In this document: positions 1,170 through 50,882 of the stretch, piece by piece
Layout of the letters: every line of letters starts with the position of its first letter
How positions within the stretch are numbered: the stretch's first letter is position 1
Virus record (IMG/VR): IMGVR_UViG_3300032308_002775
Span: 32,001-96,000 of that record
Source of the DNA: a virus
DNA length: 64,000 nt
Strand: one strand, 5' to 3'
The notes under the pieces: model-generated
Told to the model about the DNA's origin: nothing
The model's input: the letters and a program-made list of their open reading frames with translations, nothing else
Database searches by the model: none
Program-made: the position numbers and the translations under genes

Positions 1170-1190
1170 ACGAAGTAACCGGAGGTTGCC

Positions 1191-2216
1191 ATGGACGGCG
1201 AAGTTTTCTTTGAATCGGTTTTCGACGTACAGAAGGCCTACGAAGAGGGTTTCGTCGGCGCGATGTGCGACCCTGAGCATACGGACATGCTCAAGGCCGC
1301 CATTGCGGAGGCAGGCGGCCTTCCTGAAGGCGCGATGGCCTGCGCGGCCTACGGTCTTCAGGAAACCGGCAAGGGAAAGCTCAGCGCCCCGTTCCTGGAC
1401 GTTCTGTCGCTCTACCCGGACTGCCTCCCGGGTGGCGCCCAGGGACGCGGCGACTGCGTTTCGTGGTCGACCCGCAACGCCGGGCTGGTCACGATGTGCA
1501 CCGACATTACCAGCGGACTGGCCGACGAGGAGACTGGTAACGTCGAAGGCGCGCCGGAGATCTCCGACAAGGCCCGACTGAACGGCGTGCTCAGCACCGA
1601 GGCGATTTACAACTGGCGCCGTCATGGCGGGGACGGCTGGTTCTGCTCGGACGCCGCTCGGGTCGTCATGAAGGAATCGGGTCTCTGGATTCGCAGGGCG
1701 TATCCCGAGATTAACGTCGACTTCGAAACGTACTCTTCGCGCAACGCCGGGCTTTACGGTTCGCGCACGCCGCCGGAGTCCTGGCTCAAGATCGGTCAGC
1801 AGCACCTGATCCGCTCGACCACGGTGCTCGAGAGTTACGAAGAGGTTCGCGACATGCTCGCGAACGGTTACGGAATTAGCTCCTGCGGCGGCGAGTCGTT
1901 CTCGTCGGAGCGTGACGCAAATGGCGTGTCGCGACGCACGGCAAAGGGCTGGGCGCACGCGATGGCCTACATTGCGGTTGATGAGCGCCCCGAGATTATC
2001 GAGGTTTACAAAGAGCCCCTGATTTGCGTCCAAAACAGTTGGGGAAATTGGAATGACGGAAGTCGCAAGATCATGGATACGAACCTCCTGATCCCCATCG
2101 GCGCCTTCTGGGCGCGCTGGAGCGACCTGAAGAACCGCGACGCGATCGCCTTCTCGAGCTTTAACGGCTGGAAGCGCAAACCGCTGCGCAACTGGGGCGC
2201 GCTGGGCAACATTTAA
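1191..2216 (+). CDS. papain-like (C1A/clan CA) cysteine peptidase
   Basis: Catalytic motifs QGRGDCVSW (Gln/Cys), WAHAMAYIAV (His) and QNSWG (Asn) in the correct order; GGAGG RBS. Confidence 0.85.
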   Translation: MDGEVFFESVFDVQKAYEEGFVGAMCDPEHTDMLKAAIAEAGGLPEGAMACAAYGLQETGKGKLSAPFLDVLSLYPDCLPGGAQGRGDCVSWSTRNAGLVTMCTDITSGLADEETGNVEGAPEISDKARLNGVLSTEAIYNWRRHGGDGWFCSDAARVVMKESGLWIRRAYPEINVDFETYSSRNAGLYGSRTPPESWLKIGQQHLIRSTTVLESYEEVRDMLANGYGISSCGGESFSSERDANGVSRRTAKGWAHAMAYIAVDERPEIIEVYKEPLICVQNSWGNWNDGSRKIMDTNLLIPIGAFWARWSDLKNRDAIAFSSFNGWKRKPLRNWGALGNI

Positions 2217-2239
2217 CTCCTCGCACGGGAGACGGTAAC

Positions 2240-2740
2240 ATGATCGAGTGGCTTTACATCATGCTGTTCGCGCCGGTGGTGTCCTATGCCGACCCCGCAC
2301 CAACCCCCGACTATATCGGCATGGTCGCTGCAGAGGCTGCTTATGCTGCTCTGCTTCCTGCGGCGCCCCAGCCCGACAAGCCCGAACCGCAGCCCATTGA
2401 TCCGAATTGTCCGACCTGCAAAGGCACCGGCCGAGTCCGCTCCGGCGACGGCCACGAGTGGACGAAGTGCCCGACCTGTCAGCCGCTAGCGGCGCCTGCC
2501 GCGCTGCCCCGCGCGAAGTCGACGTTGCCGCCGGGCCCGTTTGCTAAGCCGCAACAAACGTCGGTTGTTCCGCCTGCGCCAGCGCCTAAGACTGCTGCAG
2601 CCGCGCCAGTTATTGTGCCGCACGCGCCTTGCGCGACTGGAGCCTGTCCCGTAGAAAAAGCGGCGCCTGCGGCGCCGCTCATGGGAGTTCCGTTCGTCAC
2701 GGCGCCAGTGCCGTCTAGGCGCGTCTTTCGGAGAAGGTAA
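2240..2740 (+). CDS. exported Pro/Ala-rich protein with CxxCxGxG zinc-finger-like motif
   Basis: Hydrophobic N-terminus; CPTCKGTG...KCPTC; basic C-terminus RRVFRRR. Confidence 0.65.
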   Translation: MIEWLYIMLFAPVVSYADPAPTPDYIGMVAAEAAYAALLPAAPQPDKPEPQPIDPNCPTCKGTGRVRSGDGHEWTKCPTCQPLAAPAALPRAKSTLPPGPFAKPQQTSVVPPAPAPKTAAAAPVIVPHAPCATGACPVEKAAPAAPLMGVPFVTAPVPSRRVFRRR

Positions 2741-2743
2741 GTA

Positions 2744-3567: not shown

Positions 3568-3577
3568 GGATTGTTGC

Positions 3578-3928: not shown

Positions 3929-3931
3929 ACC

Positions 3932-7800: not shown

Positions 7801-9261
7801 GTCTACGAGAAGTTTGTTAACCAGCTCAAGGGCGCTGGAATTAACACCGTGCGCGAAGGGACAAAGACGCACATCATGGCGGTGACCGACCGCGACATCG
7901 ATGAGCTGGCCGGGGCCCGCGAGGTCACCAACTCCGAGACAGTCGACTGGAAGGGGCGGCTCAAGCCGATCAAGGGCGGCCTGTTCGATGAAACGCTCAC
8001 CGGCGGCCACGGCGGCAACCGCTGGAGCAAGATCACGCTTCACGAACCGATGCCCAACCCGGTCATGGAGGAGCCAATCCGCCGGGTGCTCGGGCTTACC
8101 GAGAAAGAGTTCCGCGGAGTGCTCGCCGGGCAGGTGCAGCTGTTCGACAAGACCGGCCCGGAGGCCATCCAGGGCGCCCTGGGGCGGATCAACCTGCCCA
8201 AGGCGATCGAGCAGGCCAGGTTAGATATCAAATCGGGACGCAAGACTTTGCGCGACGCCGCCGTGCGGAAGCTGGGATACCTCAAGAACGCTGAATCGAC
8301 CGGCGTCCATCCCAAGGACTGGATGATGAGCAAGGTCGGCGTGCTCCCGCCGATTTTTCGGCCCGTCTCCACGATGGGCGCCAAAAAGTTACCGCTCGTG
8401 GCCGACGCGAATTACCTCTACAAGGAACTGCTCGACGCGAACGACACGCTCAAGGAAGCCTCCGGCGCCCTGAGCGAATACAGCGACGAACGGCTGGGCC
8501 TGTACGACGCCATGAAGGCCGTCTCCGGGTTGGGCGATCCGACGCAGCCCAAGAATCAGGAACGCCGTGTGAAGGGCTTTTTGCAGCACGTCTTCGGCAG
8601 TTCGCCCAAGTACGGCACCGTGCAGCGCAAGCTTCTCTCGACCACGGTCGACTTGGTGGGGCGGGCAGTTATTACGCCGAACCCGGACCTCGACATGGAC
8701 CAGGTCGCGCTTCCCGAGGACAAGGCCTGGGAGGTCTACAAGCCGTTCGTGGTGCGGGGCCTGGTGCGCCGCGGAATGCCCCGGATGAATGCGCTGGACG
8801 CCGTCGAAAACCGCAACAAGGCGGCGTACGACGAGCTGAACACGCAGATGTCGTCCCGGCCGATCGTCATTAACCGTGCGCCGGTGCTCCATCGATACGG
8901 TATGATGGCGTTTTATCCGAAGCTCACCAAGAACAAGGTTATGGAGGTTAACCCGGTCATTACCAAGGGTTTTGGCGCCGACTTTGACGGGGACGCGATG
9001 CAGTATCACGTTCCCAGCACCGAGGACGCCGCCAAGGAAGCCGTCGAAAAAATGCTTCCAAGCAAAAATCTCTTTTCGACGGCAAGCTTCAAGGCCCACT
9101 TTGTTCCGAACAGGGACTATCAGACCGGGGTTTACCTGGCTTCGAGCCGGGTCGACAAGAAACAGAAGCCGAGGGTATACAAGTCACGGCAGGACGCCAT
9201 GAACGCCTATCGCCGCGGGGAGATTGACGTCGACACCCCGGTGCATATCGTCGAGAGTTAA
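4846..9261 (+). CDS. phage multisubunit RNA polymerase, fused beta + N-terminal beta' (catalytic DFDGD)
   Basis: Beta motifs: PYLTDSGTFVNRGVE, TPESGKVG, RAVMASRMFTQALP, GKNYEDAVVISE, GDKLTGRYGDKGVV, PLGLISRVN, FMKLHH, GAKRVGMLD. Beta' motifs: ETVDWKGRLKPIKGGLF, VLPPIFRP, VDLVGRAVI, NRAPVLHR, GADFDGDAM. Alternative start ATG 4855. Confidence 0.95.
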   Translation: MSAMPDSILSGPPAPITPTPQPQAPLQTRSFGDIGALRTNIFDRALQSASSLEPIKNDLYTLQLANVAYTGPERFTKADQKKAVLTGNSLHRRLTGTWNLIDNTTGAPIATRQQTIAHVPYLTDSGTFVNRGVEYTLAHQMRLKAGVYTREKDNGELEAHVNVLPGKGRMHRYFLDPKTGVMNINIGQAKIPLMPLLKAMGAKDSDIRAAWGNEITAVNMEKGDAGTLDKLYQRLVYRQTPGIDAAAKQKAIADEFARMELDPDVTRRTLGKEYKNLTPEAILDITKKLIALNRKEADPDDRDAMAYQSIVGPEDLISERFTKDKQALRKLLWKATAKKNLDHVPTGVFNKAIQAALIGSGLGSSLEEINPAEIFDHQGRVTRMGEGGIGSLDAVPQESRSVQPSHLGFVDFLRTPESGKVGVDMRFARGAMKGTDGKIYTPVVNIQTGETEMKTPGELAETPLAFPGEEKTDMPMVAALVGGKMQYVPREEVQFSLPNMDSTFSALSNMVPLKSMMKGQRAVMASRMFTQALPLSGAEAPLVQSAVVDKDGVSHEDEMGEKLGAVKAQFHGQVVSAEPGMIVLRDREGKKHEIDLYNDMPFNRKTFWHQTPVVKPGDVIKPGQLLAHSNFTDPSGTAAMGKNLRVAYLPYQGKNYEDAVVISESAAKKLTSEHMYQHEAEWTENSHVGKKAFVALFPGEYDKKQLENFDDKGAIKKGTVVNYGDPLILQAKAKETTYGKVHRGRAGNFMNETLTWEHHSPGVVTDVEHTDKGVSVVVKSQAEMQVGDKLTGRYGDKGVVADIVPDHRMPQDKDGSPYEVLVSPLGLISRVNPAQVVEAALGKIAAKTGQPFKLKDFDSAQDLVEFAQNELGKHGLSDTEDVTDPETGRKIKSVLTGNRFFMKLHHTAESKGQGRAMSSYTAEGTPAKGGSEGAKRVGMLDLGALLSHGAGKVIRDAKMVRGQANPEYWSQFMAGYTPPLPKVPHVYEKFVNQLKGAGINTVREGTKTHIMAVTDRDIDELAGAREVTNSETVDWKGRLKPIKGGLFDETLTGGHGGNRWSKITLHEPMPNPVMEEPIRRVLGLTEKEFRGVLAGQVQLFDKTGPEAIQGALGRINLPKAIEQARLDIKSGRKTLRDAAVRKLGYLKNAESTGVHPKDWMMSKVGVLPPIFRPVSTMGAKKLPLVADANYLYKELLDANDTLKEASGALSEYSDERLGLYDAMKAVSGLGDPTQPKNQERRVKGFLQHVFGSSPKYGTVQRKLLSTTVDLVGRAVITPNPDLDMDQVALPEDKAWEVYKPFVVRGLVRRGMPRMNALDAVENRNKAAYDELNTQMSSRPIVINRAPVLHRYGMMAFYPKLTKNKVMEVNPVITKGFGADFDGDAMQYHVPSTEDAAKEAVEKMLPSKNLFSTASFKAHFVPNRDYQTGVYLASSRVDKKQKPRVYKSRQDAMNAYRRGEIDVDTPVHIVES

Positions 9262-9274
9262 CACGGAGGTTTCC

Positions 9275-10242: not shown

Positions 10243-12123
10243 ATGCTCAAGACGACGCTCGGTCAAATTCTCGTAAACGAGGCGCTGCCCGAGGACATGC
10301 GCAACTACGAGCGCGTCCTGACCAAAAAGGAAATGGGCAAGCTGGCCACGGAGCTGGCGCAGAAGTACCCGGACAAATACCGGGACGTCATGAAGCGCCT
10401 GCACGACGTGGGCCGCGACGCTGCGTACACCACGAACGGCCTGTCGTTTGGGCTGAAAGATATCAAACCGACGGTGGCCGCCCGCGACGTACAACTGCGG
10501 GTGCAGCGGCAGCTCCGCGGCATTCTGGCAAACCGCGACCTGGACGATAAGACCCGCTCGCTGGCCATTCTCAAGCTGGCCGCTGGCGCGCAGAAAGAGC
10601 TTGTCGAGCGCGTTTACGATGAGGCGCGCGGCAACGACAACCCGCTCGCGCATCAGGTAACCGGGTCTGCCGTCGGCAACAAGTTCAGCCTGAATTCGCT
10701 GATCGGCGCCGACATGCAGTATGTCGACCACAAGAACGACCCAATTCCGATTCCGGTGATGCGGAGTTACGGCCAGGGGCTTCGACCCGTGGAATATTTT
10801 GCGGGCGCCTTCGGCACCCGCAAGGGGTTGATGGACCTAAAAACGGCGACGGCCGACGCGGGCTTTTTCGGCAAACAGCTCGCCCAGATGACGCACCGGC
10901 TGCTCGTCACGGCCGACGATGACGACGATCAAGAGCGCAATGCCACTGCGCAAGACCGCGGCTTTCCGACCGACGTGGACGACGTCGACAACGAGGGCGC
11001 GCTTCTGGCGCGACCGGTGGGGCCGTACAAGCGCAACACCGTCCTGACGCCAAAGATTCTTAAAGACATCAAGGAGATGGGCATTCAGGACATCCTGGTG
11101 CGCAGCCCGCTCACCGGCGGCCCGGACGACGGCGGCGTCTACGCCAAAGACGTCGGCTACCGCGAGAAGGGCAAGCTGCCTCCAATCGGCGACTATGTCG
11201 GTATCGCCGCCGCCCAGGCCCTCTCCGAGCCGGTGACTCAGGCGCAGATCAGCTCGAAGCACTCCGGCGGCGTGGGCGGCGCGGCCTCAATCTCGGGCTT
11301 CAAGGCGATTAACGCGCTAGTCCAGGTCCCGAAAAAGTATCCCGGCGGCGCCGCGCATTCTCAGCTTGACGGATTCGTGCAGGAAATCCGCGAAGCGCCC
11401 CAGGGCGGCCATTACGTTCAAATCGGCGGCGAAGATCATTACGTGCCGGTCGACCAGGAGCTGACGGTCAAGAAGGGGCAAGAGGTCGAGGCGGGCGACT
11501 CGATCACCAATGGCATGCCCAATCCGGCCGAAGTCGTCCGGCACAAGGGCATCGGCGAGGGGCGCAGGTACTTTGTGCAGGCCATGCGCCAGGTTCTCCA
11601 GAACTCCGGCGTGTCGCCTCACCGCCGTAACATTGAACTGCTCTCGCGCGGGCTGGTCAACCACGTTCGCATGACCGACGAATACGGTGATTACAACCCC
11701 GACGACGTGGTGCCGTACTCGATGCTCGAGCGTGCTTGGCAGCCGCGTCAAGGAAGCGTGACGGGCGTGCCCAAAAGCCTGCAGGGGCATTACCTGGAGC
11801 GGCCCGTGCTCCACTACTCGGTCGGCACGAAGATCGGCAAGAATGTCGCCAGCACGCTTCAAAAGTACGGCATTAACAATGTCGAAGCGCACCGGGAACC
11901 GCCGCCCTTCCAGCCTGAAATGGTGCGCGGCATGTCGAACATCTCGAACGACCCAGACTGGATGACCCGAATGCTCGGTTCTTACCAGCAAAAGGGCCTG
12001 CTCAGCAGCGTGCACCGCGGTTCGACCAGCGACGCGGCTGGAAGCAGCTTCGTTCCCGCGCTGGCCCGCGGCGAAACGTTCGGCGTGACCGGCGCGACGA
12101 GCGGATGGCGCCCGCAAACGTGA
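10243..12123 (+). CDS. phage multisubunit RNA polymerase, C-terminal part of beta' (bridge helix, trigger loop)
   Basis: TTLGQILVN; GLSFGLKDI; bridge helix GLRPVEYFAGAFGTRKGLMDLKTATADAGFFGKQL; trigger loop GDYVGIAAAQALSEPVTQAQISSKHSGG; HRRNIELLSR. Confidence 0.93.
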   Translation: MLKTTLGQILVNEALPEDMRNYERVLTKKEMGKLATELAQKYPDKYRDVMKRLHDVGRDAAYTTNGLSFGLKDIKPTVAARDVQLRVQRQLRGILANRDLDDKTRSLAILKLAAGAQKELVERVYDEARGNDNPLAHQVTGSAVGNKFSLNSLIGADMQYVDHKNDPIPIPVMRSYGQGLRPVEYFAGAFGTRKGLMDLKTATADAGFFGKQLAQMTHRLLVTADDDDDQERNATAQDRGFPTDVDDVDNEGALLARPVGPYKRNTVLTPKILKDIKEMGIQDILVRSPLTGGPDDGGVYAKDVGYREKGKLPPIGDYVGIAAAQALSEPVTQAQISSKHSGGVGGAASISGFKAINALVQVPKKYPGGAAHSQLDGFVQEIREAPQGGHYVQIGGEDHYVPVDQELTVKKGQEVEAGDSITNGMPNPAEVVRHKGIGEGRRYFVQAMRQVLQNSGVSPHRRNIELLSRGLVNHVRMTDEYGDYNPDDVVPYSMLERAWQPRQGSVTGVPKSLQGHYLERPVLHYSVGTKIGKNVASTLQKYGINNVEAHREPPPFQPEMVRGMSNISNDPDWMTRMLGSYQQKGLLSSVHRGSTSDAAGSSFVPALARGETFGVTGATSGWRPQT

Positions 12124-12204
12124 TTCTGTAGGATGTAAGAGCTGCGACACGGTAAATTGTTGCTTACACGTGTCTTAAGATTGTGCCGCACGGAGGTGGC
12201 TACT

Positions 12205-17860: not shown

Positions 17861-17871
17861 GAGGACACGGC

Positions 17872-18981
17872 ATGGACGCCGAAAAGCTAGACGACATTTC
17901 GCGTTCCCTTGCGCTTTGCGCCGTGACGGGTAACCGCTCGGAGCTTGTCAAGGTCGCTGCGGAATACACCAAGCAAGCGGCCGGGCCCATGGATTACCTG
18001 GCCAATCCCTATGTGCGCAATGCGCTGCTGGGTCTTGGTGCCGGTGGCCTGGTTGGAATGCTGCAGCCCAAGCGCAAGCTGCGTAACGCGCTGACGTATG
18101 GTCTCGTCGGCGGCCTGGGCGGCGTGGGTTTGACTCCGCTGCTCAATCAACTTGGCGCGGCTGAAGCAGCTGAACCAAAACCCGATCAAACGGCCGGGCG
18201 CGAAGTTAAAGATCTTGGCGCCGCGGCAGAGATGGTGGCAAACGCCGACCCCGAGGCGCGCCGCGCTGTCGGCGCTGGAATCGGCGCCCTTACCGGCGCC
18301 TCAGCAGGTTATCGCGGCACCGTCGGTTTGCTGAAAAACCGTAACGCGCTGCAAAACCTGCTGGACGTGGAGACGAACGCCGCCAATGCTCGCAACTGGC
18401 GAGGGGCGCCGCGGCCCGCGCAGGTCAGTAACGACACTCTCGCTGCGCGCCAGGCGTTGCTGCCCGTGCGAAATGCGCTACAGCCGGGTGCGCCCAGGCC
18501 GCAGCAGCAGGCGTTTGTTGATGAAGTCATCCGCACCGCGCCTGGAGCAAGCCCGTCGGCGTCCCCCGACACGCGGCGGCTTCAGGCATTGGCGACACTC
18601 GGCGACGCCAGCGAAGCGGTGCGCCCTGGCGGCGTTCCGTTTTTACGTCGCGAGTCTCTTCCCGCTTTTATCCGCAACAGGCTCCCTGGGACCGACGGCA
18701 CGCGCGCGCTGGCGGCGCTTTCCGAAGCGGCCCAGGCCGCTGAAACTAGCGGCGCAGCGGCTGCTGGCGCCCCGGTCCGCGCAACACCGTCGGCAAACCA
18801 GCTTCACAGAGCGCTTGCCGAAGCAAACCGGCTTGCGCCCACGACCTGGCGGCAGCGCGCCGCCGGTGGGTTGGGCGCAATGGGCTTGGGCTATCTCGGC
18901 AGCCTTCTTGGTGGCTCGCTTGGCGAAGGTCAGGCAAACTTTGCAAACAGAGCCTTCCAGCAGAAAGCGTTCGGGCAATAA
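17872..18981 (+). CDS. putative internal head/ejection protein (369 aa)
   Basis: KVAA/KQAA near the N-terminus, then several GLGAGG-type hydrophobic helices. Confidence 0.6.
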   Translation: MDAEKLDDISRSLALCAVTGNRSELVKVAAEYTKQAAGPMDYLANPYVRNALLGLGAGGLVGMLQPKRKLRNALTYGLVGGLGGVGLTPLLNQLGAAEAAEPKPDQTAGREVKDLGAAAEMVANADPEARRAVGAGIGALTGASAGYRGTVGLLKNRNALQNLLDVETNAANARNWRGAPRPAQVSNDTLAARQALLPVRNALQPGAPRPQQQAFVDEVIRTAPGASPSASPDTRRLQALATLGDASEAVRPGGVPFLRRESLPAFIRNRLPGTDGTRALAALSEAAQAAETSGAAAAGAPVRATPSANQLHRALAEANRLAPTTWRQRAAGGLGAMGLGYLGSLLGGSLGEGQANFANRAFQQKAFGQ

Positions 18982-18982
18982 C

Positions 18983-20440
18983 ATGAGCATGATCAAAGTT
19001 ATCCAGCCGAACTCGCAGGACTTCAGCGAGCCGGTGGCGTCGCTGATCAAAATCTCCAGCCACGGCTTGCTGGGCGCCGACCGCGACGCGTTTGTGAAGC
19101 GCGCTGGGCACGAGTTCGCCGAAAAGCTTGAGCAGGTCAAGTTTGCTGCGGACGAGATTCCCGTCCACCTGATCGCCATTGGCGCCACCGAGGACTACGG
19201 CCCGAACCGTAATGCCGACGGGTTCACGCGTGATTGCTGCCGCAAGTATCACCACACGTTTGAGAAGTACGCGAAGTTTTATCGCGACCACCTCAACAAG
19301 AACCCGGCCAAGAGTTACGGCGTTATCAAGGTCGCTGCCTACAACGAGCCGATGAAACGGATTGAGCTGGTCTGCGCGCTGAACGGCTCCAAAGAGGCGG
19401 CCGAGCGCAACGGCGGTCTACTCGCTGACAAGGAAATGGAGAAGCTGGCGCGGGGCGATGATATCGGCGTCTCGATGGCCTGCAAGATCCCATTCGACGT
19501 CTGCTCCGGCTGCGGCAACAAGGCGCGCACCCGGGCCGAGTACTGCGATTCCGTTGAAAACGGCGGCATGTGCAAGGCAGGCGGCCTGAGACACAACCTG
19601 GGGCGGGTCCTCGACGACGGGCACATCCTGCACGCCGACAACCCTAATCCCAGCTTCTTTGATATCTCGCACGTGTTTCGCCCCGCGGACCGAATTGCCT
19701 ACATTTCTGGGCAACTCAAGGCGGCCAGTGCTGGAGTTCTCTCTGGCGCCGCGCTGGCCGAGGAACTGGGCGTTACGGCGCCGAGCGGTTTTGATCGCGA
19801 GCCCGGCGCATCGCTTCGTTTGGCAACGCAGCTCGACGCGCTCGACAAGCTCGCCGCCGCGGAGGCCGCTGCGGCAAGCAACCTCGCTGGTTGGGGCCAG
19901 GTTGCGTTGGCTGCCAACTCCGCGGTTCAGCCGCGCGTCGACTTTGTCCCCTGCGAGCACGTCAAGCTGGCCGAGGCTCTCCGGGCGCTGGCCGACGCGG
20001 GCGTAATCCTTCCGGTCCGCGAGTTCCTGGCGCTCACCGTAAAGTCGGCGGGCGACGAATTAGTTCATGCTGTTACTAGCGCGCTGGACGGCGTCTTCAC
20101 TAAACTAGCGAGTGACCCCGATGTTGTCGTGGCGCTCGAAACTAACGCGTATTTCCCGGCTGCTGTTGCTTCTGGCAAGGTTCGCGCGTGGGCGGAGAAA
20201 GTCGCGTTAACGCACAGTATTCTTCCGCAAGCGGTGGAGAAGCGCGCCTATCAGGCCGCGCTACGAAACGCGCAGGTGGGTGAGTTAGTTAGGGAGAAGG
20301 GCGCCAGTTCGACCTCGGCGGTGGGCCTTGCGCGGCAGTACGCTTTCTATAAGATTGCTGCCTACGCGTCCCTTAGCGAGAAATATGGAAACTGCTGGTT
20401 GACAGCAAACCATTGTGTTCTGCAAAATTATGTCACGTGA
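18983..20440 (+). CDS. prohead (capsid maturation) protease, HK97/herpesvirus-type fold with Cys-rich insert
   Basis: PNRNADGF...YRDHLNK...SYG...VSMACKIPFDVCSGCGN...FFDISHVFRPADRIA; located upstream of the scaffold and capsid genes. ATG 18983 follows the stop at 18981. Confidence 0.75.
   Translation: MSMIKVIQPNSQDFSEPVASLIKISSHGLLGADRDAFVKRAGHEFAEKLEQVKFAADEIPVHLIAIGATEDYGPNRNADGFTRDCCRKYHHTFEKYAKFYRDHLNKNPAKSYGVIKVAAYNEPMKRIELVCALNGSKEAAERNGGLLADKEMEKLARGDDIGVSMACKIPFDVCSGCGNKARTRAEYCDSVENGGMCKAGGLRHNLGRVLDDGHILHADNPNPSFFDISHVFRPADRIAYISGQLKAASAGVLSGAALAEELGVTAPSGFDREPGASLRLATQLDALDKLAAAEAAAASNLAGWGQVALAANSAVQPRVDFVPCEHVKLAEALRALADAGVILPVREFLALTVKSAGDELVHAVTSALDGVFTKLASDPDVVVALETNAYFPAAVASGKVRAWAEKVALTHSILPQAVEKRAYQAALRNAQVGELVREKGASSTSAVGLARQYAFYKIAAYASLSEKYGNCWLTANHCVLQNYVT
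20399..20428 (+). promoter_or_regulatory. candidate sigma70-like promoter for the scaffold/capsid operon
   Basis: TTGACA-N18-CAAAAT in an AT-richer patch at the 3' end of the protease gene. Confidence 0.35.
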
Positions 20441-20485: not shown

Positions 20486-21796
20486 ATGGCACGGATGCAA
20501 CGATCGCTTTTCGCGCAGCTTAACGCACTGGCTGAAGAGATTTCACAGAACTCTGTGAAGTCCGCCGCTGAGAAGAAGGCGGAAGGCGGCCCCACCCCCG
20601 CGGACCCGGGCGGATACATGGGTGCTTCTTCGCACCCCAGCGCTCACGTCGACAACGACGTGCAGAAAGCCGACACCGGCGCCCGCGCGGCCGAGTACGA
20701 AGCCGACATCAAGAAGCAGCAAGGCGCGCTCGCGGTGGACAACACCCCCGAGCTTCCCTACGAGGGTCGCCAGGACGAGGTGCAGCAGAACATTGGCACC
20801 AACGTCGCGGCCACCGGAGAAGACCCGGCTGCCGAGCACGACTACAAGGGCACGAAGGACGATCCGGGCACCGCGCATCCGGCCAAGACCAACGACGGCG
20901 AGAAGTACAGCTCGGTGACGTTCAAGGAAGCGCGCGACCGCGCGGCCGCCCTGGGCAACGACATTCTTGCCGCGCTGGTTAACGCCAGCACCGAGAAGGC
21001 GGCCGAGATGCCCGCCTTTCTCAAGGACAAGAAAGAAGAGTCCAAGAGCGAGTCCAAGAGCGAGTCCAAGGGCGAGCTGAAGGGCGACCAGCACAAGCTG
21101 GACGTCGATAACGACGGCAAGATCGAGGGCTCGGACCTCAAGGCGCTCCGCGAAGGCAAGGAAGCCGCTTTCAAGGCAGGTTACGACCTGGCCAAGGAGC
21201 TGGGGCTTTCGAAGGAAGCGGCTGAAGCTTCCGTGCGCGAGATCTGCGCCAACACGCTCCGCGAGGCCGACGAAATGGCCGACCTGTTCATCGGTTTTGT
21301 CAGCCAGAAGGCTGCCGCGGCCGACCCGAGCGAAGAGGCCGCTGAGGGCGAGGATCACTCGGCTCCCGGCGACGACGAGTCGGGCGCGAGTCCGATGGGC
21401 GAAGCGGGCGGTGCTCCGGCGGGTCTCGAGGGCATGATGGGCGGCGAGGCCCCGATGCCCGAAGGCGATCCGATGGCCGGTGGCGCTGGCGCTCCGTCTG
21501 AGGACGAAGCGGTCCAGGAGTTGGCCATGGCGCTGGAAGAGCTGGGCATCCCGCCCGAGGCTCTGCTCCAGGCTGTCCAGGGCGGCGCTGGCGCTGCTCC
21601 GATGGGCGCTGGCCCTGAAATGGCACCCGAGATGGCTCCCAAGATGGCTGCTGCGAATGACCTGAAGTCGATCGGCACCGCCGTGCTCAACTTCAAGCGG
21701 AGCGGCAAGTTCCAGGTCAAGGAAGCCCGCACCAAGCGGTCGCGTCAGCTGCGCGACATCATGAAGCAGCACGTCCTGGAACTCGTCAACCGGTAA
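20486..21796 (+). CDS. putative capsid scaffolding/prohead core protein (436 aa)
   Basis: AAGGAG RBS; acidic, low-complexity sequence with many K-x-A motifs; lies between the protease and capsid genes. Confidence 0.65.
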   Translation: MARMQRSLFAQLNALAEEISQNSVKSAAEKKAEGGPTPADPGGYMGASSHPSAHVDNDVQKADTGARAAEYEADIKKQQGALAVDNTPELPYEGRQDEVQQNIGTNVAATGEDPAAEHDYKGTKDDPGTAHPAKTNDGEKYSSVTFKEARDRAAALGNDILAALVNASTEKAAEMPAFLKDKKEESKSESKSESKGELKGDQHKLDVDNDGKIEGSDLKALREGKEAAFKAGYDLAKELGLSKEAAEASVREICANTLREADEMADLFIGFVSQKAAAADPSEEAAEGEDHSAPGDDESGASPMGEAGGAPAGLEGMMGGEAPMPEGDPMAGGAGAPSEDEAVQELAMALEELGIPPEALLQAVQGGAGAAPMGAGPEMAPEMAPKMAAANDLKSIGTAVLNFKRSGKFQVKEARTKRSRQLRDIMKQHVLELVNR

Positions 21797-21817
21797 ATCA
21801 CACGGAGGTTTGAAATC

Positions 21818-22246: not shown

Positions 22247-22294
22247 TTTCACATGGATCTGTGATTACCACGAAAAAGACATGGAGGTCTTAAC

Positions 22295-22840
22295 ATGGCA
22301 ACTGCTCCCAATCTGATCACTGAGAAGGGGCTCGACGTCAAAAAGGGCTGGTTCCAAATGGCCGCCCTCGACTACGACGCCAAGCTCGCTTCGGCTGTCT
22401 CCTTCGACGTTCCGCGCGGTCGCGTGGTCCACGTCGACTCGGACGGCAACTTCCGCCCTGGTGCGCACAACACCGGCGTTGCGATCTTCCTGCTCAACGG
22501 CTCGGCCGAGGCGGACGTCAGCAACCCCGGCACCACGGCTTCTGGCAACTTCATGCACCGGGCCATCGCCCCGACCGGCAAGATGTCCGGCCTCGTGGCG
22601 ACGGGTGGTTACGAGATTGCGTCGACTGAGTTCGACTCGTCCCGCACCTACACCCCGGGCGATCTGCTCACCGCGACGGCTTCGGATTCGAACGCCACGA
22701 CCGGTGGTCGGATCACGAACCAGTCGGTCACGCAGTTTGTGACGCCGGTGGTCGGCGTTGTGTCGTCCGGTAAGGCCAAGAACCACAACGGGGTCTACGC
22801 GCTGTCCTTCTGGTCGGCGTGGCTCCCGGGCGAAGCCTGA
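22295..22840 (+). CDS. putative capsid decoration/cement protein (181 aa)
   Basis: Small Gly/Thr-rich beta protein (YTPGDLLTA...G...VVGVVS) immediately upstream of the major capsid gene. Confidence 0.55.
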   Translation: MATAPNLITEKGLDVKKGWFQMAALDYDAKLASAVSFDVPRGRVVHVDSDGNFRPGAHNTGVAIFLLNGSAEADVSNPGTTASGNFMHRAIAPTGKMSGLVATGGYEIASTEFDSSRTYTPGDLLTATASDSNATTGGRITNQSVTQFVTPVVGVVSSGKAKNHNGVYALSFWSAWLPGEA

Positions 22841-22880
22841 ATCCATCCTTAGTCACACCCGGAACATGGAGGTTCCTTAA

Positions 22881-24743: not shown

Positions 24744-24848
24744 ATGCGCAACTTCTTTGTGCTGATAACCGCCGCGACCCTGGTCTTCTGGCCTGAGATT
24801 GCTGTCGGTGCGGCGGTCGCCTTGATTATTCGTTCATTCATGGAGTGA
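24744..24848 (+). CDS. possible 34-aa membrane peptide
   Basis: GGGAG RBS; MRNFFVLITAATLVFWPEIAVGAAVALIIRSFME. Confidence 0.35.
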   Translation: MRNFFVLITAATLVFWPEIAVGAAVALIIRSFME

Positions 24849-24851
24849 ATC

Positions 24852-28885: not shown

Positions 28886-28991
28886 GGAAAACCAATCACC
28901 CGCGTGAACAGGTATTTTTTTTCATGACAACGGGTTGGATATACTAACCCAGTCACTACCGTTCACGACACTAGGCATGGAGGCCTGACGC

Positions 28992-32474: not shown

Positions 32475-35375
32475 ATGGCAGGAAAACAATCAACGCCCCC
32501 GATGGGGGTGCCGGGCCTCGCACAGACACCGGCTTATGACCCGGGCGCGGCTGTTCGGCACCTTAAGACGCGCAGCGTCGACGCCTCCCGAGACGCCACC
32601 TCTGCTCGCGGCGCGGGAACCGCCGCGGTCGCCGACCCTAACTGCAAGCACGTCGGCTTCAAACTCGGCTTTCAGGATACCGGGCGGCTCTGCCTGGGCT
32701 GGATTGTCGACGGAACCGCGATTGCCAACTGTTATCGGGTACAGATTGAAAAAATGCGGGCGCCCCTGGCAGCGGCGGCGTGCACGCATAACAGTCACGG
32801 CGTGGTCGGAGCTAAATCACTCACGTCGTACGCCCCGGGGACACCGGTCATTCTGATGGTCCACGACAAGATGGACCTGGCCTACATTCTGGGCGCGGTT
32901 CCCAGCGTTCTGGACGTTGCATACCGCGGGTTTCACGACTACATCTCGCAGACGACGCGAAAGCGCGTCGACGACTGCCAGAAAAAGTATCTCAAGCTGC
33001 CCAACAGCGGCTCGATGAGCGACTGCAGCGCCTGGCGACCGATCGACCAGACGCTCGCCAGCGAGTGGGGCGCCATCTCGACGACTGGGTTAAGCGTCTC
33101 GCTCGACGATTTCCTGGTAAAGCTTTCGGTGAACGAGTTTACCGGCGTTTTTGGCTTTTACCATGACTCGATGTTGCGGGTCGCAGGCTACAACATGCAG
33201 ACGTGGACTGGCGGCCACGAGCGCGACGCCTATGTCGACCAGGGCGAGTACAACGATTACCAGGGCTATTCTCCGTATCCCTGGGAAGCGGCCGGGTTGT
33301 TGGATACCGGCGTTCCAAACGTTATCGTTTACGACCCGCTTACCTACCTTCAGAGCAAGGGCAAGCCGTACTATGCGCACTTCGAAAACAAGCACGAGTA
33401 CGCGCAGCCCTATCACCGCACCCAGCAGTTCTTCGGTTACTTGGGCCAAGGCTCCCGCAGCGTTGTTCAGGCGCCGCCGGAGTCCGTTGAGCGCTGGATG
33501 TACAAGCCTGGAGAGGCCACTCCGCCGGGCACGGTGTTTGACTCCCAGATTCAGGCGGAAAACACAAACCCGCCGCAGGCCACATCCGGCGAAGACAAGC
33601 TCAAAGACTACCCCATCGAGGGCAAACCGCCGATCGGCTTGCACGAAGATAACGTCGGCCTCGACGGTCGTCGTTTTATTGCCAGCGCCAAAGGCATCAT
33701 TCTCGCAAAACGAATGTTGCTGCCGATGCCCGTGCGCCTCAAGCGACCCGAGGCGGGCGATGGCGACGACGCGCTTTCCACGGGCGATAACAAATACCGC
33801 GCCGCCGGAAAAGAAGGCATGGGTGACGGGCCGGAACACAAAATTACCGGCGACGTCGAGGCCAACGACACGCACAAGAACATGCAGCGGGCCAGCGGCG
33901 TGCTGGATTTACACGCATACCTGTTTAACTACGCCGGGCTGCACCCGTTTTACTGGCACACCAAGGACTGGAAAACCTACGAGCAGAAAGATCTGAAATA
34001 TGCTGAGTGCAACCACCGCGTGCCGGATTTTTCAGAGCTGACGGGCTCGATGTACCTGAAGGAGCCAACCCCGGTTCCAATCAAGATTGACCACCGCTAC
34101 GGCACTCAGAATTTCTACGAGACGACTGCGGGCATCTCGATTCTCGAGGACGGCAGCATCGTGCTGAGCGACGGATACGGCGCAGAGATCAAGATGAGCG
34201 GCGGCTGCTTGATCCTCTCCGCACCGGGCGACGTGTGGATGAAATCCGGACGCCACACGCAGAGCTGGGCCGGAGGCGACATCATCGAGCGCGCCAACGG
34301 TTCGGTGGATATTTCCACCACGCGCAAAAACATTCGCATTAAGAGCGAAAAGAACGTCCTGATTCTTGCTGGAAACAACGCAAACTCGTCTGAAAAAGAC
34401 GGCGGCGTGCTCATCGAGAGCCGCGCCGACGCAATCTACTACGATTTCGAAAAGGCGGGCGATCAGGCGCGCTTTGGCGGCGTGGCGTTGCGGGCGCCCA
34501 ATTCAAATGTCGTGGGCTTGGCGCACCAAATCTACCTGCGCTCCGGCGGCGGTAATAACGACTTCAAGCCAGGCAACATTACCATCGATGCGGGCAAGGG
34601 CGAGAAGGATCTTGTTACCAAGAGCAACCGCATCTTTAACTACGTCGGTGAAAGCGGCGAGATATGCAACTTCTTTTCAATCGCTGACGCAGGCAAGCCC
34701 CAGGTGGCGCAATACTTCTCGAAAGATTACGTGCTGCTCTGTGGCGATTTTGCTGTAGAGAAAAACATCATTGCGGGCGGCGGCACGCTCTGTCGAGACT
34801 TTCTTCTCTGCGACGGCCCGATTGTCGGCGACTCCGTGGCGTACCCCTGCGAAAGCGACTGTTCCAAAAGCATTCAAAAAGCCATCGACAAGGTCGTCGA
34901 GTACATCAAGAAGAAGCTGCCGAAGATGGCCAGAGATTTCCACAACGACTATCTGTCCAAGTTGTGGTACGACGCGCAGCGCGCCGGTAACGACCGGGTC
35001 ATGAACATCATGGAGTTCTCCTGGCGCACCGACGACGACTACAACATCCCGAACTTCATGCTGTACGAGGACCGCTGGCAGCAGATGGCGCGGCTGACCA
35101 ATAAAATCCCCAGCCGTTGGACAGAAACATCCGTCAAGAGCAAGGTCGCCGAGGGCGGCGAAACGTACCCATTTCCGGGACGAAAGTGGCTGATTGATCG
35201 CCCCGCCTACCGCACTCAAGACTTCAACTTGGTCGAGGTAAAGGGCGGCAACCTCGTCGACAAGGAGCGCGGCGAGAACGGAAACCTGGCTGACGAATAC
35301 AAACAGCCCAAGTTTGCGCAGGCATCGGCGCCAGAAATCATTAACGGGCAGTACCCGATTGTTTCGAATCCTTGA
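32475..35375 (+). CDS. putative baseplate central spike (gp5/gpV-like OB fold + beta-helix)
   Basis: N-terminal GWIVD...YRVQI...PGTPVILM...YILGAVP; repeated short strands ISILEDGSIVLSDGYGAEIKMSGG...VDISTTRKNIRIKSEKNV. Confidence 0.5.
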   Translation: MAGKQSTPPMGVPGLAQTPAYDPGAAVRHLKTRSVDASRDATSARGAGTAAVADPNCKHVGFKLGFQDTGRLCLGWIVDGTAIANCYRVQIEKMRAPLAAAACTHNSHGVVGAKSLTSYAPGTPVILMVHDKMDLAYILGAVPSVLDVAYRGFHDYISQTTRKRVDDCQKKYLKLPNSGSMSDCSAWRPIDQTLASEWGAISTTGLSVSLDDFLVKLSVNEFTGVFGFYHDSMLRVAGYNMQTWTGGHERDAYVDQGEYNDYQGYSPYPWEAAGLLDTGVPNVIVYDPLTYLQSKGKPYYAHFENKHEYAQPYHRTQQFFGYLGQGSRSVVQAPPESVERWMYKPGEATPPGTVFDSQIQAENTNPPQATSGEDKLKDYPIEGKPPIGLHEDNVGLDGRRFIASAKGIILAKRMLLPMPVRLKRPEAGDGDDALSTGDNKYRAAGKEGMGDGPEHKITGDVEANDTHKNMQRASGVLDLHAYLFNYAGLHPFYWHTKDWKTYEQKDLKYAECNHRVPDFSELTGSMYLKEPTPVPIKIDHRYGTQNFYETTAGISILEDGSIVLSDGYGAEIKMSGGCLILSAPGDVWMKSGRHTQSWAGGDIIERANGSVDISTTRKNIRIKSEKNVLILAGNNANSSEKDGGVLIESRADAIYYDFEKAGDQARFGGVALRAPNSNVVGLAHQIYLRSGGGNNDFKPGNITIDAGKGEKDLVTKSNRIFNYVGESGEICNFFSIADAGKPQVAQYFSKDYVLLCGDFAVEKNIIAGGGTLCRDFLLCDGPIVGDSVAYPCESDCSKSIQKAIDKVVEYIKKKLPKMARDFHNDYLSKLWYDAQRAGNDRVMNIMEFSWRTDDDYNIPNFMLYEDRWQQMARLTNKIPSRWTETSVKSKVAEGGETYPFPGRKWLIDRPAYRTQDFNLVEVKGGNLVDKERGENGNLADEYKQPKFAQASAPEIINGQYPIVSNP

Positions 35376-43231: not shown

Positions 43232-44044
43232 ATGCCTGACATGAAGAAGCCCGGTATGCCGTCCATTCTTGACGACGTTCCTATGCCGTTCTCCGGCCCA
43301 AAAAAGCCGCAGGGCGTGGGCGACGATTTCGAATCGACGTTCTCGCAGTGGCAGCAGCGACGCACGCCGGAAACAAATACGCAGATTCTCCGGACGGTGC
43401 AGCCAGTAATCGATACGGCGCTGACCAGTTATGCGGGCGGCAACAATAGTCCCACGATTCGGTCCCGGGCGAAGTTGATGGCGCTGAAAGCCTTGGAAAC
43501 GTACGACCCGCAAAAGGGAAACGTCCGGACGCACCTCCTCAGCCAGCTTCAGAGTTTGCGCCGGACCGCGGCGCAGGCGCAAAACATCATCTCGATCCCC
43601 GAGCAGGTCGGACTAGACTACCAGCGGCTCGCCGAGAGCGAGAACGAATTGCGCGACCGACTTGGCCGCGACCCCACGGACGACGAACTGGCCGACCACA
43701 CTTTGCTCTCGCCCCGGCGGATCCGAAAGATTCGCTCGTTTGCGCAGCCTGTCGCCGAGGGCTCCACAGTAGTCGAAAGCGGCGACGAGATGAATGATGG
43801 CGGCGTGGCTAGCACGATTCCCGGCAGCATCCGCGCGGCCGAGGCGTGGATGAATTTCGTGTACGACGACCTCAGCTCGACCGACAAGTTAATCATGGAT
43901 TTGACGCTAGGGCGCAACGGGCGGCGGCGCACCAGTACGCAGGAAATTGCGCGCCGGTTGAATGTCACACCCGGCGCCGTGAGTCAGCGCGCCGCCAAAA
44001 TTCAGGCCATGATCGACAAGCGTTACACGCAGGGAGGTTTCTGA
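43232..44044 (+). CDS. sigma70-family RNA polymerase sigma factor (270 aa)
   Basis: Region 2 ALKALETYDPQKGNVRTHL; region 3 IISIPEQV...ELRDRLGRDPTDDELAD; region 4 LSSTDKLIMDLTLG...STQEIARRLNVTPGAVSQRAAKI. Confidence 0.85.
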   Translation: MPDMKKPGMPSILDDVPMPFSGPKKPQGVGDDFESTFSQWQQRRTPETNTQILRTVQPVIDTALTSYAGGNNSPTIRSRAKLMALKALETYDPQKGNVRTHLLSQLQSLRRTAAQAQNIISIPEQVGLDYQRLAESENELRDRLGRDPTDDELADHTLLSPRRIRKIRSFAQPVAEGSTVVESGDEMNDGGVASTIPGSIRAAEAWMNFVYDDLSSTDKLIMDLTLGRNGRRRTSTQEIARRLNVTPGAVSQRAAKIQAMIDKRYTQGGF

Positions 44045-48287: not shown

Positions 48288-48296
48288 GGGAGTAAC

Positions 48297-48941
48297 ATGG
48301 CCACGGACACGATTGGAAAGAACGGGTCAGGTGTGCGCGGGCGAGTCACGCTCTGGCGGGTCGACGAGTCCAGCGGCCTGATGGTGCCGCTCCACAGCCA
48401 AAAGAACCAGATCCTCCTGTCCTGGGGCCACGTCGCCGCCCGGCAGCTCGGCTACCGACCGCAGGCCGGTCGGCCCAGCTACCACATCTCCGCGATGTAC
48501 ATCGAGTACGAAAACGTCGGGAGCCCTTCCACAGAGGTGACCGTCGAGGCCTTCGAGCGAGACCTCGATCCGGACTACTACAACAACCTGATGGCCAGCG
48601 CCTCCCGCGACTATCTCCGCGTCGCCCTGCGGCTGGAACCGACGCTGGGTATTTCGACCGACACGGCAGATCTTTACCCGGGTTACTTCACCGACGGCGC
48701 CAACGGTAACGCGCTCACGTTTTTCGCCCAGACCTCCGGCGTCGAGGGCGTGCACGGAAAGGCCTTCGGCGGCAGCGGCAACAACAGCAAGATTTACGCC
48801 GCGTCGCTCGTGGCGACACCCGGCGGCGACGACCCGACGCAGGATGTCTTGTTTGCGCGGACGACCTTCGCGGCAGCTGATCAGGTGACCAAGGAAGCGT
48901 CCTCGCAAATCGGGATCACCTGGGAAGCGGCGTTTGAATAA
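48297..48941 (+). CDS. baseplate/tail-fibre attachment protein (putative)
   Basis: C-terminal LFARTTF...KEASSQIGITW resembles tail-collar/fibre N-terminal domains. Confidence 0.45.
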   Translation: MATDTIGKNGSGVRGRVTLWRVDESSGLMVPLHSQKNQILLSWGHVAARQLGYRPQAGRPSYHISAMYIEYENVGSPSTEVTVEAFERDLDPDYYNNLMASASRDYLRVALRLEPTLGISTDTADLYPGYFTDGANGNALTFFAQTSGVEGVHGKAFGGSGNNSKIYAASLVATPGGDDPTQDVLFARTTFAAADQVTKEASSQIGITWEAAFE

Positions 48942-48980
48942 CAGTTTCACATGGATTTGTGAAACCATTGGAGGACACGG

Positions 48981-50882
48981 ATGTCCAACAGTAACTGGCT
49001 GAACAACATCAAGCACGTTGCGCCCGGCGAGCCGGTGCAGGCTGGCGTCGTAAGTCGCCCCGATCGCGCGCTAGTTGACCGCACGAACTACCTCAAGGAC
49101 CGCCTTGACGCCGCGGCCCTCGGCCAGGCGATTTTCGACGTGGATGCCACGGTTGCACCGGACGTGCTGCCCGGCCAGCCCGTGTTTTGGAACCACGAAA
49201 CTCAGCGCTACGAAAAGGCGCTGGCCGCCGTGGAAACGAACCCGGCGACCCAGGCCTTGGTGACGCAACCTTCCTGCGACGTCCTGGGCGTCTGCTACAC
49301 GAAGAAGAACGCCACACAGGCGGACATCGTGCTGCGCGGCCTGGTCAAGCTCCCGGAAATCACCAACGCCGTCAGCGGTACTGTGGCCGCCGGTCGTTAC
49401 TACCTGTCGAGCACCGAGAGCGGCAAGCTCGTTCAAGAGCGGCCGCCCGTCACCGTAAGCGTCTGCTACGTGCAGGGCGCCAAGGACAACTGCGCCGACG
49501 AGCCGTGGGTCGTCGTGATGCCGCAGATGCGCGACTTTCTCGAAGACCACATCCATTACCGCTTTGAGCTGGCGACGCTGCCTGCGGGCGATCACGATCC
49601 GACCGCGGCCGCCACGAATGGCGTGCACACGATCGAAAACGCCGACGAGGAACGCGAGGGCTGGCTTCCGGCTGATCACGCAATCTTCAACGGCACAGCC
49701 CCGGCGGGCGCAAAGTTTGGCTACAACTTTTCTCAGCACGCCGCCATCGAGCGCGTCTGGCCGCCGCAACCGATCCAGGCCGTGGCCATCCTCTGGGACA
49801 AAGGAATCAACAACGTCGGCGCTACGGAGATTCCGCTGGGCGCCGACGGGCTGTGCGTCGTAAACACCCACGGCATCTGGTGGATGAGCGACTGCTATGG
49901 CGAGGTGCCCTGGCCAGCGGACCTTGACACGGCCAGCGTCGAATCCGTGAGCTCGCTGGCCGATTGCCCGCGCGAAGAGCGAATGCGGGTAATCGTCGTT
50001 TATCTTCGGATGCTTTTCGGTAACGACCGCTCCGTGGTGACGAGCCTCAAGCCTGCTGAAGGCAGCCCGATTACCGTCGTCAACTGCGACGGTATTCCGG
50101 CGAATCAAGATAATGCGCTGACGGGCGATCTCGAGCTGGGGCTGAACCTGGCGCTCCTAGACGATCCGACCGAGGTGGCTGGCGGCCGGGTCTACAAGCA
50201 GATCACAACAGATTTTAAGTTCCGGAAGGGGTGGGTTGCTGAAGGCGTCCGCTCCGGCGCCGGGCCGCTGACGATCACCGGCACGCGCAGCCGTGTGCTC
50301 ACAACTGCTGAGAAGACGGCGCTGCAGCTTCCGGCTGACGATGAGTCGCTTCTGCATCAAGGACTGGTCACCATTTCCTACGATGACCAACTGGTTGAAC
50401 GCGAAATCGCGCCGCAGATCATCCGGTTGTCCGACACGGTCGAGCGACTCTATCTCGACATTCCGTACCTCGGGTTTCCACAGAGCCAGGATTCACTGGT
50501 GCGGGTGCGGCTCAACGTTCCCAGCGCGAACCTTGGCGCGCCTCTGGCGCTGCGCATTCGCGCGCAGCTCTTTGGCAGAACCAGCGCCGTGCTGCCCGCG
50601 ATGGCCGTGTCGTATCGGCGCATTCCGCGGCCAGCGTCTGCGGTGACCGCTGCAATGCCGACGCTTCCCGGCGTGAGCGACGAGGTCAACATCGTTTTTG
50701 AAGTGCCCGCCGCGTCGCTTCCCGTCGATACGCCTGTTGAGGTCGAGAGCGAGACGTTCGAGATCGTCGAGGGCGACACTGTCCTGGTGACGCTCGCGCG
50801 ATACGGCACCGCGGACAGCTACGCGGGCGAGGTCGGTCTGTTACGGTTGTCGGGTGTGATCACCGTCCCTGCCGCTGAATAA
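48981..50882 (+). CDS. putative tail fibre/baseplate protein (633 aa)
   Basis: GEPVQAGVVSRPDRALVDRTNYLKDRL resembles tail-fibre N-termini; GRYYLSSTESGKL. Confidence 0.55.
   Translation: MSNSNWLNNIKHVAPGEPVQAGVVSRPDRALVDRTNYLKDRLDAAALGQAIFDVDATVAPDVLPGQPVFWNHETQRYEKALAAVETNPATQALVTQPSCDVLGVCYTKKNATQADIVLRGLVKLPEITNAVSGTVAAGRYYLSSTESGKLVQERPPVTVSVCYVQGAKDNCADEPWVVVMPQMRDFLEDHIHYRFELATLPAGDHDPTAAATNGVHTIENADEEREGWLPADHAIFNGTAPAGAKFGYNFSQHAAIERVWPPQPIQAVAILWDKGINNVGATEIPLGADGLCVVNTHGIWWMSDCYGEVPWPADLDTASVESVSSLADCPREERMRVIVVYLRMLFGNDRSVVTSLKPAEGSPITVVNCDGIPANQDNALTGDLELGLNLALLDDPTEVAGGRVYKQITTDFKFRKGWVAEGVRSGAGPLTITGTRSRVLTTAEKTALQLPADDESLLHQGLVTISYDDQLVEREIAPQIIRLSDTVERLYLDIPYLGFPQSQDSLVRVRLNVPSANLGAPLALRIRAQLFGRTSAVLPAMAVSYRRIPRPASAVTAAMPTLPGVSDEVNIVFEVPAASLPVDTPVEVESETFEIVEGDTVLVTLARYGTADSYAGEVGLLRLSGVITVPAAE

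Follow-up and report, generated by a model that had tools for sequence, protein, structure and literature searches.

What is the role of the small hairpins that recur over ribosome-binding sites (RBSs) and start codons of an uncultured phage, each presenting a GGA in its loop? The stretch of DNA that raises this question (64,000 nucleotides [nt]; here called the window) covers bases 32001 to 96000 of a 153,669-bp viral contig (IMG/VR record IMGVR_UViG_3300032308_002775; 60% G+C), in which almost all genes lie on the plus strand. A first-pass annotation had listed 13 such hairpins, all of which we found again at their places, and had interpreted them as a CsrA/RsmA-type translational regulon for virion genes. 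We describe here a class of hairpins that is strongly enriched at the gene starts of this contig and its csrA-carrying relatives and propose that a CsrA protein encoded by the phage itself probably acts on them, as operators in the phage's own mRNAs and most likely as a repressor.

Enrichment and covariation of hexaloop hairpins at gene starts

The class was defined by an A-N-G-G-A-N hexaloop placed directly on a Watson-Crick stem, over either the Shine-Dalgarno (SD) site or the start codon. The gene model was derived from codon statistics, with starts picked by pairing to the anti-SD sequence, and expected numbers were obtained by swapping the 5' and 3' flanks of each GGA (at positions -25 to -4 of starts) between genes, a permutation that retains the SD context. 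The comparison with such controls, proposed by the first-pass annotation, came out clearly: 12 hexaloops on stems of at least 3 bp were counted at gene starts of the contig, against 1.0 expected (P < 0.001). In the same test, Watson-Crick stems of at least 2 bp numbered 98 (79.7 expected; P < 0.001) and stems of at least 4 bp around GGA numbered 14 (6.8 to 7.6 expected; P = 0.016 against 7.6), and none of three false pairing rules gave an excess of stems.

The proposed hairpin is also the predicted fold in the leaders of the major capsid gene, its upstream neighbor, the tail sheath gene, and genes 12205 and 17872 (genes are named by their start positions in the window). Folding energies of single hairpins are ordinary for their composition (z, -0.7 to +0.3), z-scores of single leaders being uninformative, and the support for the hairpins comes from geometry, enrichment, and covariation. 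These ordinary energies, together with the 2-bp stems of several listed sites, are what one would expect if the pattern were a product of chance or of the composition of GGAGG-rich RBSs. Chance does hold for the sites at 20489, 21800, and 44029, but it is ruled out for the class, and we give it practically no weight as a general explanation: the permutation test yielded P values below 0.001 in five genomes, the false pairing rules stayed flat, and stems covary in three separate alignments.

For these alignments, orthologous starts were mapped in IMG/VR loci and distinct sequences were compared with shuffled controls (n = 500). In the capsid hairpin (40 distinct sequences), 88.5% of pair positions were paired, against 70.4% after shuffling (matched by 0 of 500 controls), and both bases had changed at 31 pair positions where 8 were expected; the stems seen include ggaac/guucc, agaac/guucu, aagac/gucuu, gcac/gugc, and cgauc/gaucg. 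Gene 22295, directly upstream, behaved alike (39 distinct sequences; 85.6% against 68.5%, 0 of 500; 29 double changes against 10), and the sheath hairpin (29 distinct sequences) showed 78.4% against 69.8% pairing with a covariation score of 0.352 against 0.175 (0 of 500). The stem covariation in related phages that had been suggested as a check was, in other words, present in all three hairpins. While the second loop base varies in each alignment, the closing pair is nearly always C-G (39/40 capsid and 36/39 gene 22295 sequences), the loop A and the GGAG are invariant in the capsid and gene 22295 alignments, and in the sheath alignment the GGAG is invariant and the A is present in most rows. 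In distant relatives that carry csrA, the sheath hairpin has 6- to 7-bp stems of other sequence. The hairpin is both gene specific and conserved: CANGGANG was found in 93%, 95%, and 72% of the orthologues of gene 22295, the capsid gene, and the sheath gene, respectively, in 47% of those of gene 21818 (where the motif is conserved and the stem is not), in 29% of those of gene 24852, and in 0 to 8% for ten other genes of the module.

The high-affinity binding site of RsmE/CsrA proteins is an ANGGAX hexaloop directly on a stem with a C-G (or U-A) closing pair; the looped-out N may be any base (Duss et al. 2014, PMC4005645), and affinity drops if it is omitted or if bases are inserted between loop and stem (PMC4005645). 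As predicted from their sequences, all of these features recur in the phage hairpins. Conceivably, another RNA-binding protein or RNase of the phage, coinherited with csrA, recognizes them, and they resemble CsrA sites by convergence. Most proteins encoded by these phages belong to no recognizable family (PHROG and Pfam searches returned nothing for most hairpin-bearing genes), so further RNA-binding proteins may be encoded. Nevertheless, we consider this highly improbable, given how detailed the match to the CsrA consensus is (the A, the looped-out N, the GGA, the hexaloop on its stem, and the C-G closing pair) and given the presence of a CsrA gene.

Distribution of csrA and the hairpins in the phage family

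The first-pass annotation had recognized no csrA gene, which is correct for the window. When the complete contig was searched with the Pfam CsrA profile, however, one was located at contig positions 101016 to 101219 (plus strand), about 5 kb beyond the window and hence out of reach of that annotation. Its product of 67 amino acids (aa) matches PF02599 with 74.5 to 75.2 bits (cutoff, 27) over profile positions 1 to 50 of 53, and full-length solved CsrA/RsmE chains were matched at 1.5e-8 to 8e-8 (phmmer). The RNA-contacting residues are present (MLVLSRK at 1 to 7 and V-R-A-E-L at 43 to 47, which includes the Arg-44 equivalent), and each of the 25 phage homologues inspected retains both the N-terminal motif and this arginine. 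Compared with RsmE, the phage protein has Ser for Thr5 and Arg for Gln29, two residues whose roles have been described (PMC4005645).

Two further features of the phage CsrA proteins deserve mention. Many homologues (L066 to L091) end, after a Lys-rich linker, in a conserved G-(L/V)-E-R-P-x-x tail that is not shown by the matched solved chains from E. coli, Bacillus, and Pseudomonas and that could be a partner-binding peptide. Relative G035 carries two CsrA domains in one 184-aa frame (contig positions 11292 to 11729, minus strand; L072/L094), possibly a single-chain dimer, an arrangement that would fit the need for two subunits in a family whose interlocked homodimers bind two GGA sites; of the genomes counted below, G035 is also the one with the most hairpins.

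The phage belongs to a family without close cultured members. Its contig encodes split multisubunit RNA-polymerase-like proteins as well as the tail sheath (identified by PHROG matches), the nearest cultured match of the capsid protein is the major capsid protein of Salmonella phage Arash (28% identity), and a DNA-level search for cultured phages found no near relative. In IMG/VR, capsid relatives were found at 65 loci (55 to 98% identity), mostly on contigs of about 200 kb. A search of genome collections for the host matched three short contigs from two metagenome bins only and yielded no host. Of 50 records from relatives, 26 contain a csrA gene; among the 20 with a completeness of 90% or more, 17 do. 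The three complete records that lack it come from the most distant relatives, and a family-specific hidden Markov model confirmed its absence from them. In three relatives (G035, G041, and G042), the RBS of csrA itself bears a hairpin, as expected for autoregulation.

Nine whole relatives were fetched and run through the same pipeline. Hexaloops on stems of at least 3 bp (observed/expected) numbered 12/1.0 in this contig (G000), 13/1.3 in G002, 19/1.0 in G026, 4/1.2 in G030, 39/2.2 in G035, and 27/2.2 in G038, all of which carry csrA, and 1/1.8, 0/0.9, and 0/0.7 in G044, G045, and G046, which do not. When the six csrA-carrying genomes were pooled and all registers scanned, NNGGAN directly on a stem of at least 4 bp occurred 68 times (5.6 expected), with A as the first base in 65 and a C-G closing pair in 46 of the 68. 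Lesser excesses were seen for the register trivially derived from this one and for AGGA and AGGAN loops (A(N)GGA penta- and tetraloops); all other loop registers in these genomes, and every register in the csrA-less genomes, were at expectation. Of 39 stems of at least 4 bp in G035, 27 close the hexaloop, nearly all stem sequences differ, and nearly all hairpins end 0 to 8 nt before the start codon. The two groups were separated only by counts at gene starts relative to permuted flanks; whole-genome counts of the octamer CAYGGAGG, tried as a marker, did not distinguish them (G045 has 17 copies on the coding strand) and were discarded.

These counts bear on the main rival explanation, a cis-acting SD-display hairpin unrelated to CsrA: the stem would hold the SD hexamer open and insulated, for strong and context-independent translation, and the phage CsrA would act on host mRNAs. 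The best-conserved cases are indeed genes with a need for high output (capsid and sheath), and in the 36 of the 68 pooled hairpins whose loop is the canonical AAGGAG, the loop A needs no explanation beyond the SD; moreover, relative G040 keeps some hairpins without csrA, and the csrA genes of cultured temperate phages are not accompanied by such hairpins (see below). What such a display would not predict is one exact register, with the GGA at hexaloop positions 3 to 5 and other loop sizes at expectation, nor an invariant A next to a variable and, in this clade, mostly non-SD second base, nor versions over the start codon (C-ACGGAU-G). Neither does it predict the total absence of the class from three csrA-less relatives, which have more GGAGG SDs than the csrA-carrying genomes (preceded by AAA, GAA, or TGA and not by CAC or CAT). 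We therefore regard it as unlikely.

In comparisons between two csrA-carrying genomes, the hairpin is often retained at orthologous starts even where the proteins are about 50% identical (e.g., 4/5 and 4/4), whereas between csrA-carrying and csrA-less genomes it was kept in none of the comparisons. In a capsid tree rooted with Arash, the csrA-less lineages form a basal grade and all csrA-carrying genomes form one clade (96/99 support). Nested within that clade, G040 and G043 have no csrA at the syntenic position; about 120 nt stand there in place of about 1.1 kb (contig positions of about 94,900 to 95,050 in G040), and no csrA was found in the rest of the available 84% of the G040 genome. Of the hairpins of G038, 2/10 are kept in this csrA-less sister, against 4/6 in the more distant but csrA-carrying G035; these numbers are small and not significant but suggest decay of the hairpins after the loss of csrA. 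The sheath hairpin (7 bp) remains in the G040/G043 lineage, from which most orthologous hairpins are absent.

The same data speak to the idea that a host CsrA is the intended binder, with the phage mRNAs serving as a distributed sponge or borrowing the regulator, and with the phage csrA being an unrelated host manipulation gene. The motif is the universal CsrA consensus, hairpins occur in G040 without a phage csrA, and manipulation of the host by phage CsrA has been proposed (PMC11879866). On the other hand, the genome collections yielded no host, the hairpin excess tracks the phage's own csrA across the family, the csrA RBS bears the hairpin in three relatives, and the retention figures for G040 and G035, small as they are, point the other way. 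We consider a host protein as the intended partner quite unlikely.

Several observations weigh against regulation by the phage CsrA and need to be set against the above. Because the csrA-less genomes form a basal grade and the csrA-carrying ones a single clade, the co-occurrence of csrA and hairpins amounts to about one evolutionary event. G030 carries csrA and is only weakly enriched, while G040, nested in the clade and devoid of csrA, has 6 hexaloop hairpins (0.9 expected). Membership in the regulon turns over fast (3/14 kept from G035 to G038). The unrelated csrA-carrying temperate phages F116 and Vibrio phage 219E41.1 show no excess of hexaloop hairpins at gene starts, so the pattern is not general to phages with csrA. 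Many bacterial CsrA targets have two GGA sites, and most of the phage leaders have a single clear one. The GGA-repeat sponge RNA that the first-pass annotation had suggested looking for did not turn up: the window has no Rfam match, and A(N)GGA density is not conspicuously high in any intergenic part of the contig. Finally, it is not obvious why repression of the most abundant virion proteins would be useful.

Individual sites and neighboring elements

Seven of the 13 sites listed by the first-pass annotation belong to the enriched and conserved class; the other six (20489, 21800, 44029, 1175, 1188, and 24836) are at chance level or not conserved and were removed from it (Table 1). Hairpins are shared broadly at the capsid gene, its neighbor, the sheath gene, and gene 48981 only.

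Table 1. Hairpins and candidate hairpins in the window (positions in the window; lowercase, stem; uppercase, loop)
Element	Position	Strand	Gene	Remarks
Two overlapping, mutually exclusive candidates, guaac-CGGAG-guugc and gcc-AUGGAC-ggc (3 bp)	1175..1199	+	Gene 1191	Weak
aac-ACGGAG-guu	9260..9271	+	244-aa gene (ATG 9275)	Over SD; short, 3 bp only; not the predicted fold
gccgc-ACGGAG-guggc	12185..12200	+	791-aa gene (GTG 12205)	Over SD; minimum-energy fold
cggc-AUGGAC-gccg	17868..17881	+	369-aa open reading frame (ORF)	Start codon (17872) inside hexaloop; minimum-energy fold
gc-ACGGAU-gc	20489..20498	+	Gene 20486	2 bp; within codons 2 to 4; chance level
CACGGAGGU motif	21800..21809	+	Before gene 21818	2-bp stem; not in predicted fold
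Palindromic hairpin ucaca-UGGAUC-uguga	22249..22264	+	27 nt before SD hairpin of gene 22295	Possible second GGA site or terminator
aagac-AUGGAG-gucuu	22276..22291	+	181-aa gene directly 5' of capsid gene (ATG 22295)	Over SD; minimum-energy fold
ggaac-AUGGAG-guucc	22861..22876	+	Major capsid gene (ATG 22881)	Over SD; minimum-energy fold, -6.2 kcal/mol
auuca-UGGAG-ugaau	24836..24850	+	Before gene 24852	Loop without 5' A, outside ANGGAN class; other fold predicted
(u)aggc-AUGGAG-gccu(g)	28972..28987	+	Tail sheath gene (ATG 28992)	Over SD; minimum-energy fold
gc-AGGGAG-gu	44029..44038	+	Before ORF 44044	2 bp including a G-U pair; chance level
Second palindrome copy, 8 bp, loop UGGAUU	48944..48965	+	Before gene 48981	Fold 48940-48992, -18.3 kcal/mol (z, -2.97)
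ggac-ACGGAU-gucc	48973..48986	+	633-aa gene (AUG 48981)	Start codon is last two loop bases plus closing G

Among the retained sites, the hairpin at 12185 is kept in G002 and has a counterpart in G026 (ugccgc-AUGGAG-guggcg), and at the start orthologous to that of the short site at 9260, G026 encloses AUGGAG in a stem of 7 bp whose sequence differs. Orthologues of gene 48981 keep C-ANGGAU-G on stems ggac/gucc or gcc/ggc (AGGAU in G040), and the orthologue in csrA-less G044 has no hairpin. Support for the site at 17868 is moderate, with ggc-AUGGAY-gcc or gyc kept in three close relatives; the ORF that starts there (17872 to 18981) overlaps the next one (18386 to 20440), on the same plus strand and in a different frame, by about 600 nt, which points either to a frameshift or to a start of the second gene well downstream of its first start codon.

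As for the sites that were removed, the loop at 1175 (CGGAG) lacks the A and is not present in the nearest relative, G002; the overlapping candidate at 1188 is kept in G002 only, and the fold predicted for this region uses a GGA triloop. The stem at 24836 is kept in the nearest relatives only, and a hairpin of at least 4 bp is found in 3% of the orthologues. The bases at 20489 are conserved in all relatives as coding sequence (Met-Ala-Arg), and no conservation of the site at 44029 was seen in G002, G026, or G030. About 30 to 45 nt upstream of the orthologues of gene 20486, most close relatives (L004 to L034) have a covarying, terminator-like hairpin (gcuaaucg...cgauuagg), and in a distant subclade this gene has operator hairpins of the guca-AAGGAG-ugac type instead.

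A second GGA-loop hairpin lies 27 to 30 nt upstream at genes 22295 and 48981 only. Both instances are copies of a palindrome (UUUCACAUGRAUNNGUGA) of which the contig holds three intergenic copies, the third being at contig position 97654, outside the window; each sits just 3' of a stop codon and 33 to 46 nt before a gene start and folds into a hairpin of 8 bp whose loop is of the UGGAUU type. In relatives, a hairpin of other sequence is found at the place equivalent to 22249, and the GGA is not always kept in the loop.

Upstream of the capsid hairpin, by about 10 to 20 nt, stands a conserved CCYUAAC(U)AA word (window positions 22835 to 22860; L001 to L035) that could be a promoter, a processing signal, or a set of stop codons in several frames. 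Two other readings of the hairpin sequences were tried and rejected. The capsid hairpin happens to fit AACA-N6-TW, which we take to be a late-promoter word of giant phages, but the hairpins of the neighbor gene and the sheath gene do not fit it, and a transcription start there would cut off the SD. Extended SD pairing fails as well, since the conserved 16S tail offers no complement to the CAY that precedes GGAGG.

The proposed regulon and known systems

Taken together, the hairpins would serve as CsrA/RsmE-type operators of translation, with ANGGAN hexaloops on 3- to 7-bp stems that are usually closed by C-G; in two genes the loop contains the AUG, in the others the GGAG of the SD. We infer that a dimer of the 67-aa phage CsrA most likely binds these loops and thereby blocks binding of the 30S subunit, repressing rather than activating about a dozen genes, with those for the major capsid and sheath proteins among the predicted set and, in some relatives, probably csrA itself. 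How repression would be lifted is a matter of best guess; abundant late mRNAs might titrate CsrA and so produce an abrupt late switch. The hairpins may be bound by host CsrA as well.

Judged by computation, the first-pass proposal of a CsrA-type regulon survives in its core, on the strength of the high-affinity shape of the hairpins, the csrA gene in the same contig, and an excess found in csrA-carrying genomes and not in the basal csrA-less ones, and it loses the six sites that fall outside the class. Its restriction to head and tail genes does not stand: many small nonstructural genes bear the hairpin, more so in relatives such as G035, and csrA does in three. The role in timing or stoichiometry that it suggested is putative. 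On balance, and with less assurance, we favor a wider scenario in which a clade of uncultured phages of about 200 kb gained csrA once and built a private regulon around it (12 to 39 operators per genome, including capsid, sheath, and csrA), the late messages acting as the sponge that lifts repression; if so, a phage CsrA would for the first time have a defined set of targets and a mechanism.

Phage-borne csrA genes are common, and this family provides a concrete and testable list of targets for such a gene. The candidate sites (16-nt RNAs) and their partner (a 67-aa protein) are small enough to be synthesized and tried, and the csrA-less relatives offer a natural contrast for the gain and loss of a regulon. 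If the proposal is true, a bacterial global regulator has been reused for translational control within a virus, in a role comparable to that of T4 RegA.

The type of mechanism, CsrA/RsmE repression at SD hairpins, is known, and here it is probably run by the phage. As in RsmE-hcnA and CsrA-glgC (Pseudomonas and E. coli; PDB 2JPP), the sites have an ANGGAX hexaloop, a C-G closing pair, and overlap with the SD or start, and a CsrA-family protein is encoded in the same genome; the loop at gene 48981 (ACGGAU) is even identical to that of the hcnA hairpin bound by RsmE. Unlike in those systems, regulator and targets reside in a virulent-looking giant phage, the targets include capsid and sheath genes, binding is predicted from sequence, most leaders have one site and not two or more, and the contig yielded no sponge RNA of the kind known from Csr/Rsm systems (CsrB and RsmY/Z).

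Among phage regulators, T4 RegA is a small repressor of many phage mRNAs, including its own, that acts at unstructured AU-rich sites on early mRNAs. The phage CsrA would resemble it as a small phage protein that binds the RBSs of the phage's own messages and its own mRNA, but the folds are unrelated, and the sites described here are structured GGA hexaloops that include late structural genes.

Genes of the same protein family are common in temperate phages of Pseudomonas and Vibrio (F116, phi297, and Vibrio phages) and are carried by other mobile elements too; PTXU04 gp28 is a further example (PMC11879866). Knockdown of one phage csrA reduced plaque size, its role in the life cycle having been described as untested before (PMC11879866). 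In contrast to the genomes described here, F116 and 219E41.1 lack the hexaloop excess, and their kind of csrA is usually assumed to act on the host. F116 (L096) has a second CsrA-like gene (33363 to 33569) inside its head module and three copies of GCGCAGGAGUGCG (AGGAGU loop, GC stem; at about 33520, 33960, and 39450), one of them over an SD.

A further analogy is the coat protein operator of the RNA phages MS2 and PP7, a small hairpin enclosing the start region at which a dimer of a phage protein shuts off translation. In those phages there is a single operator, with another loop and another protein fold, whereas the genomes of the present family would deploy 12 to 39 candidate operators each.

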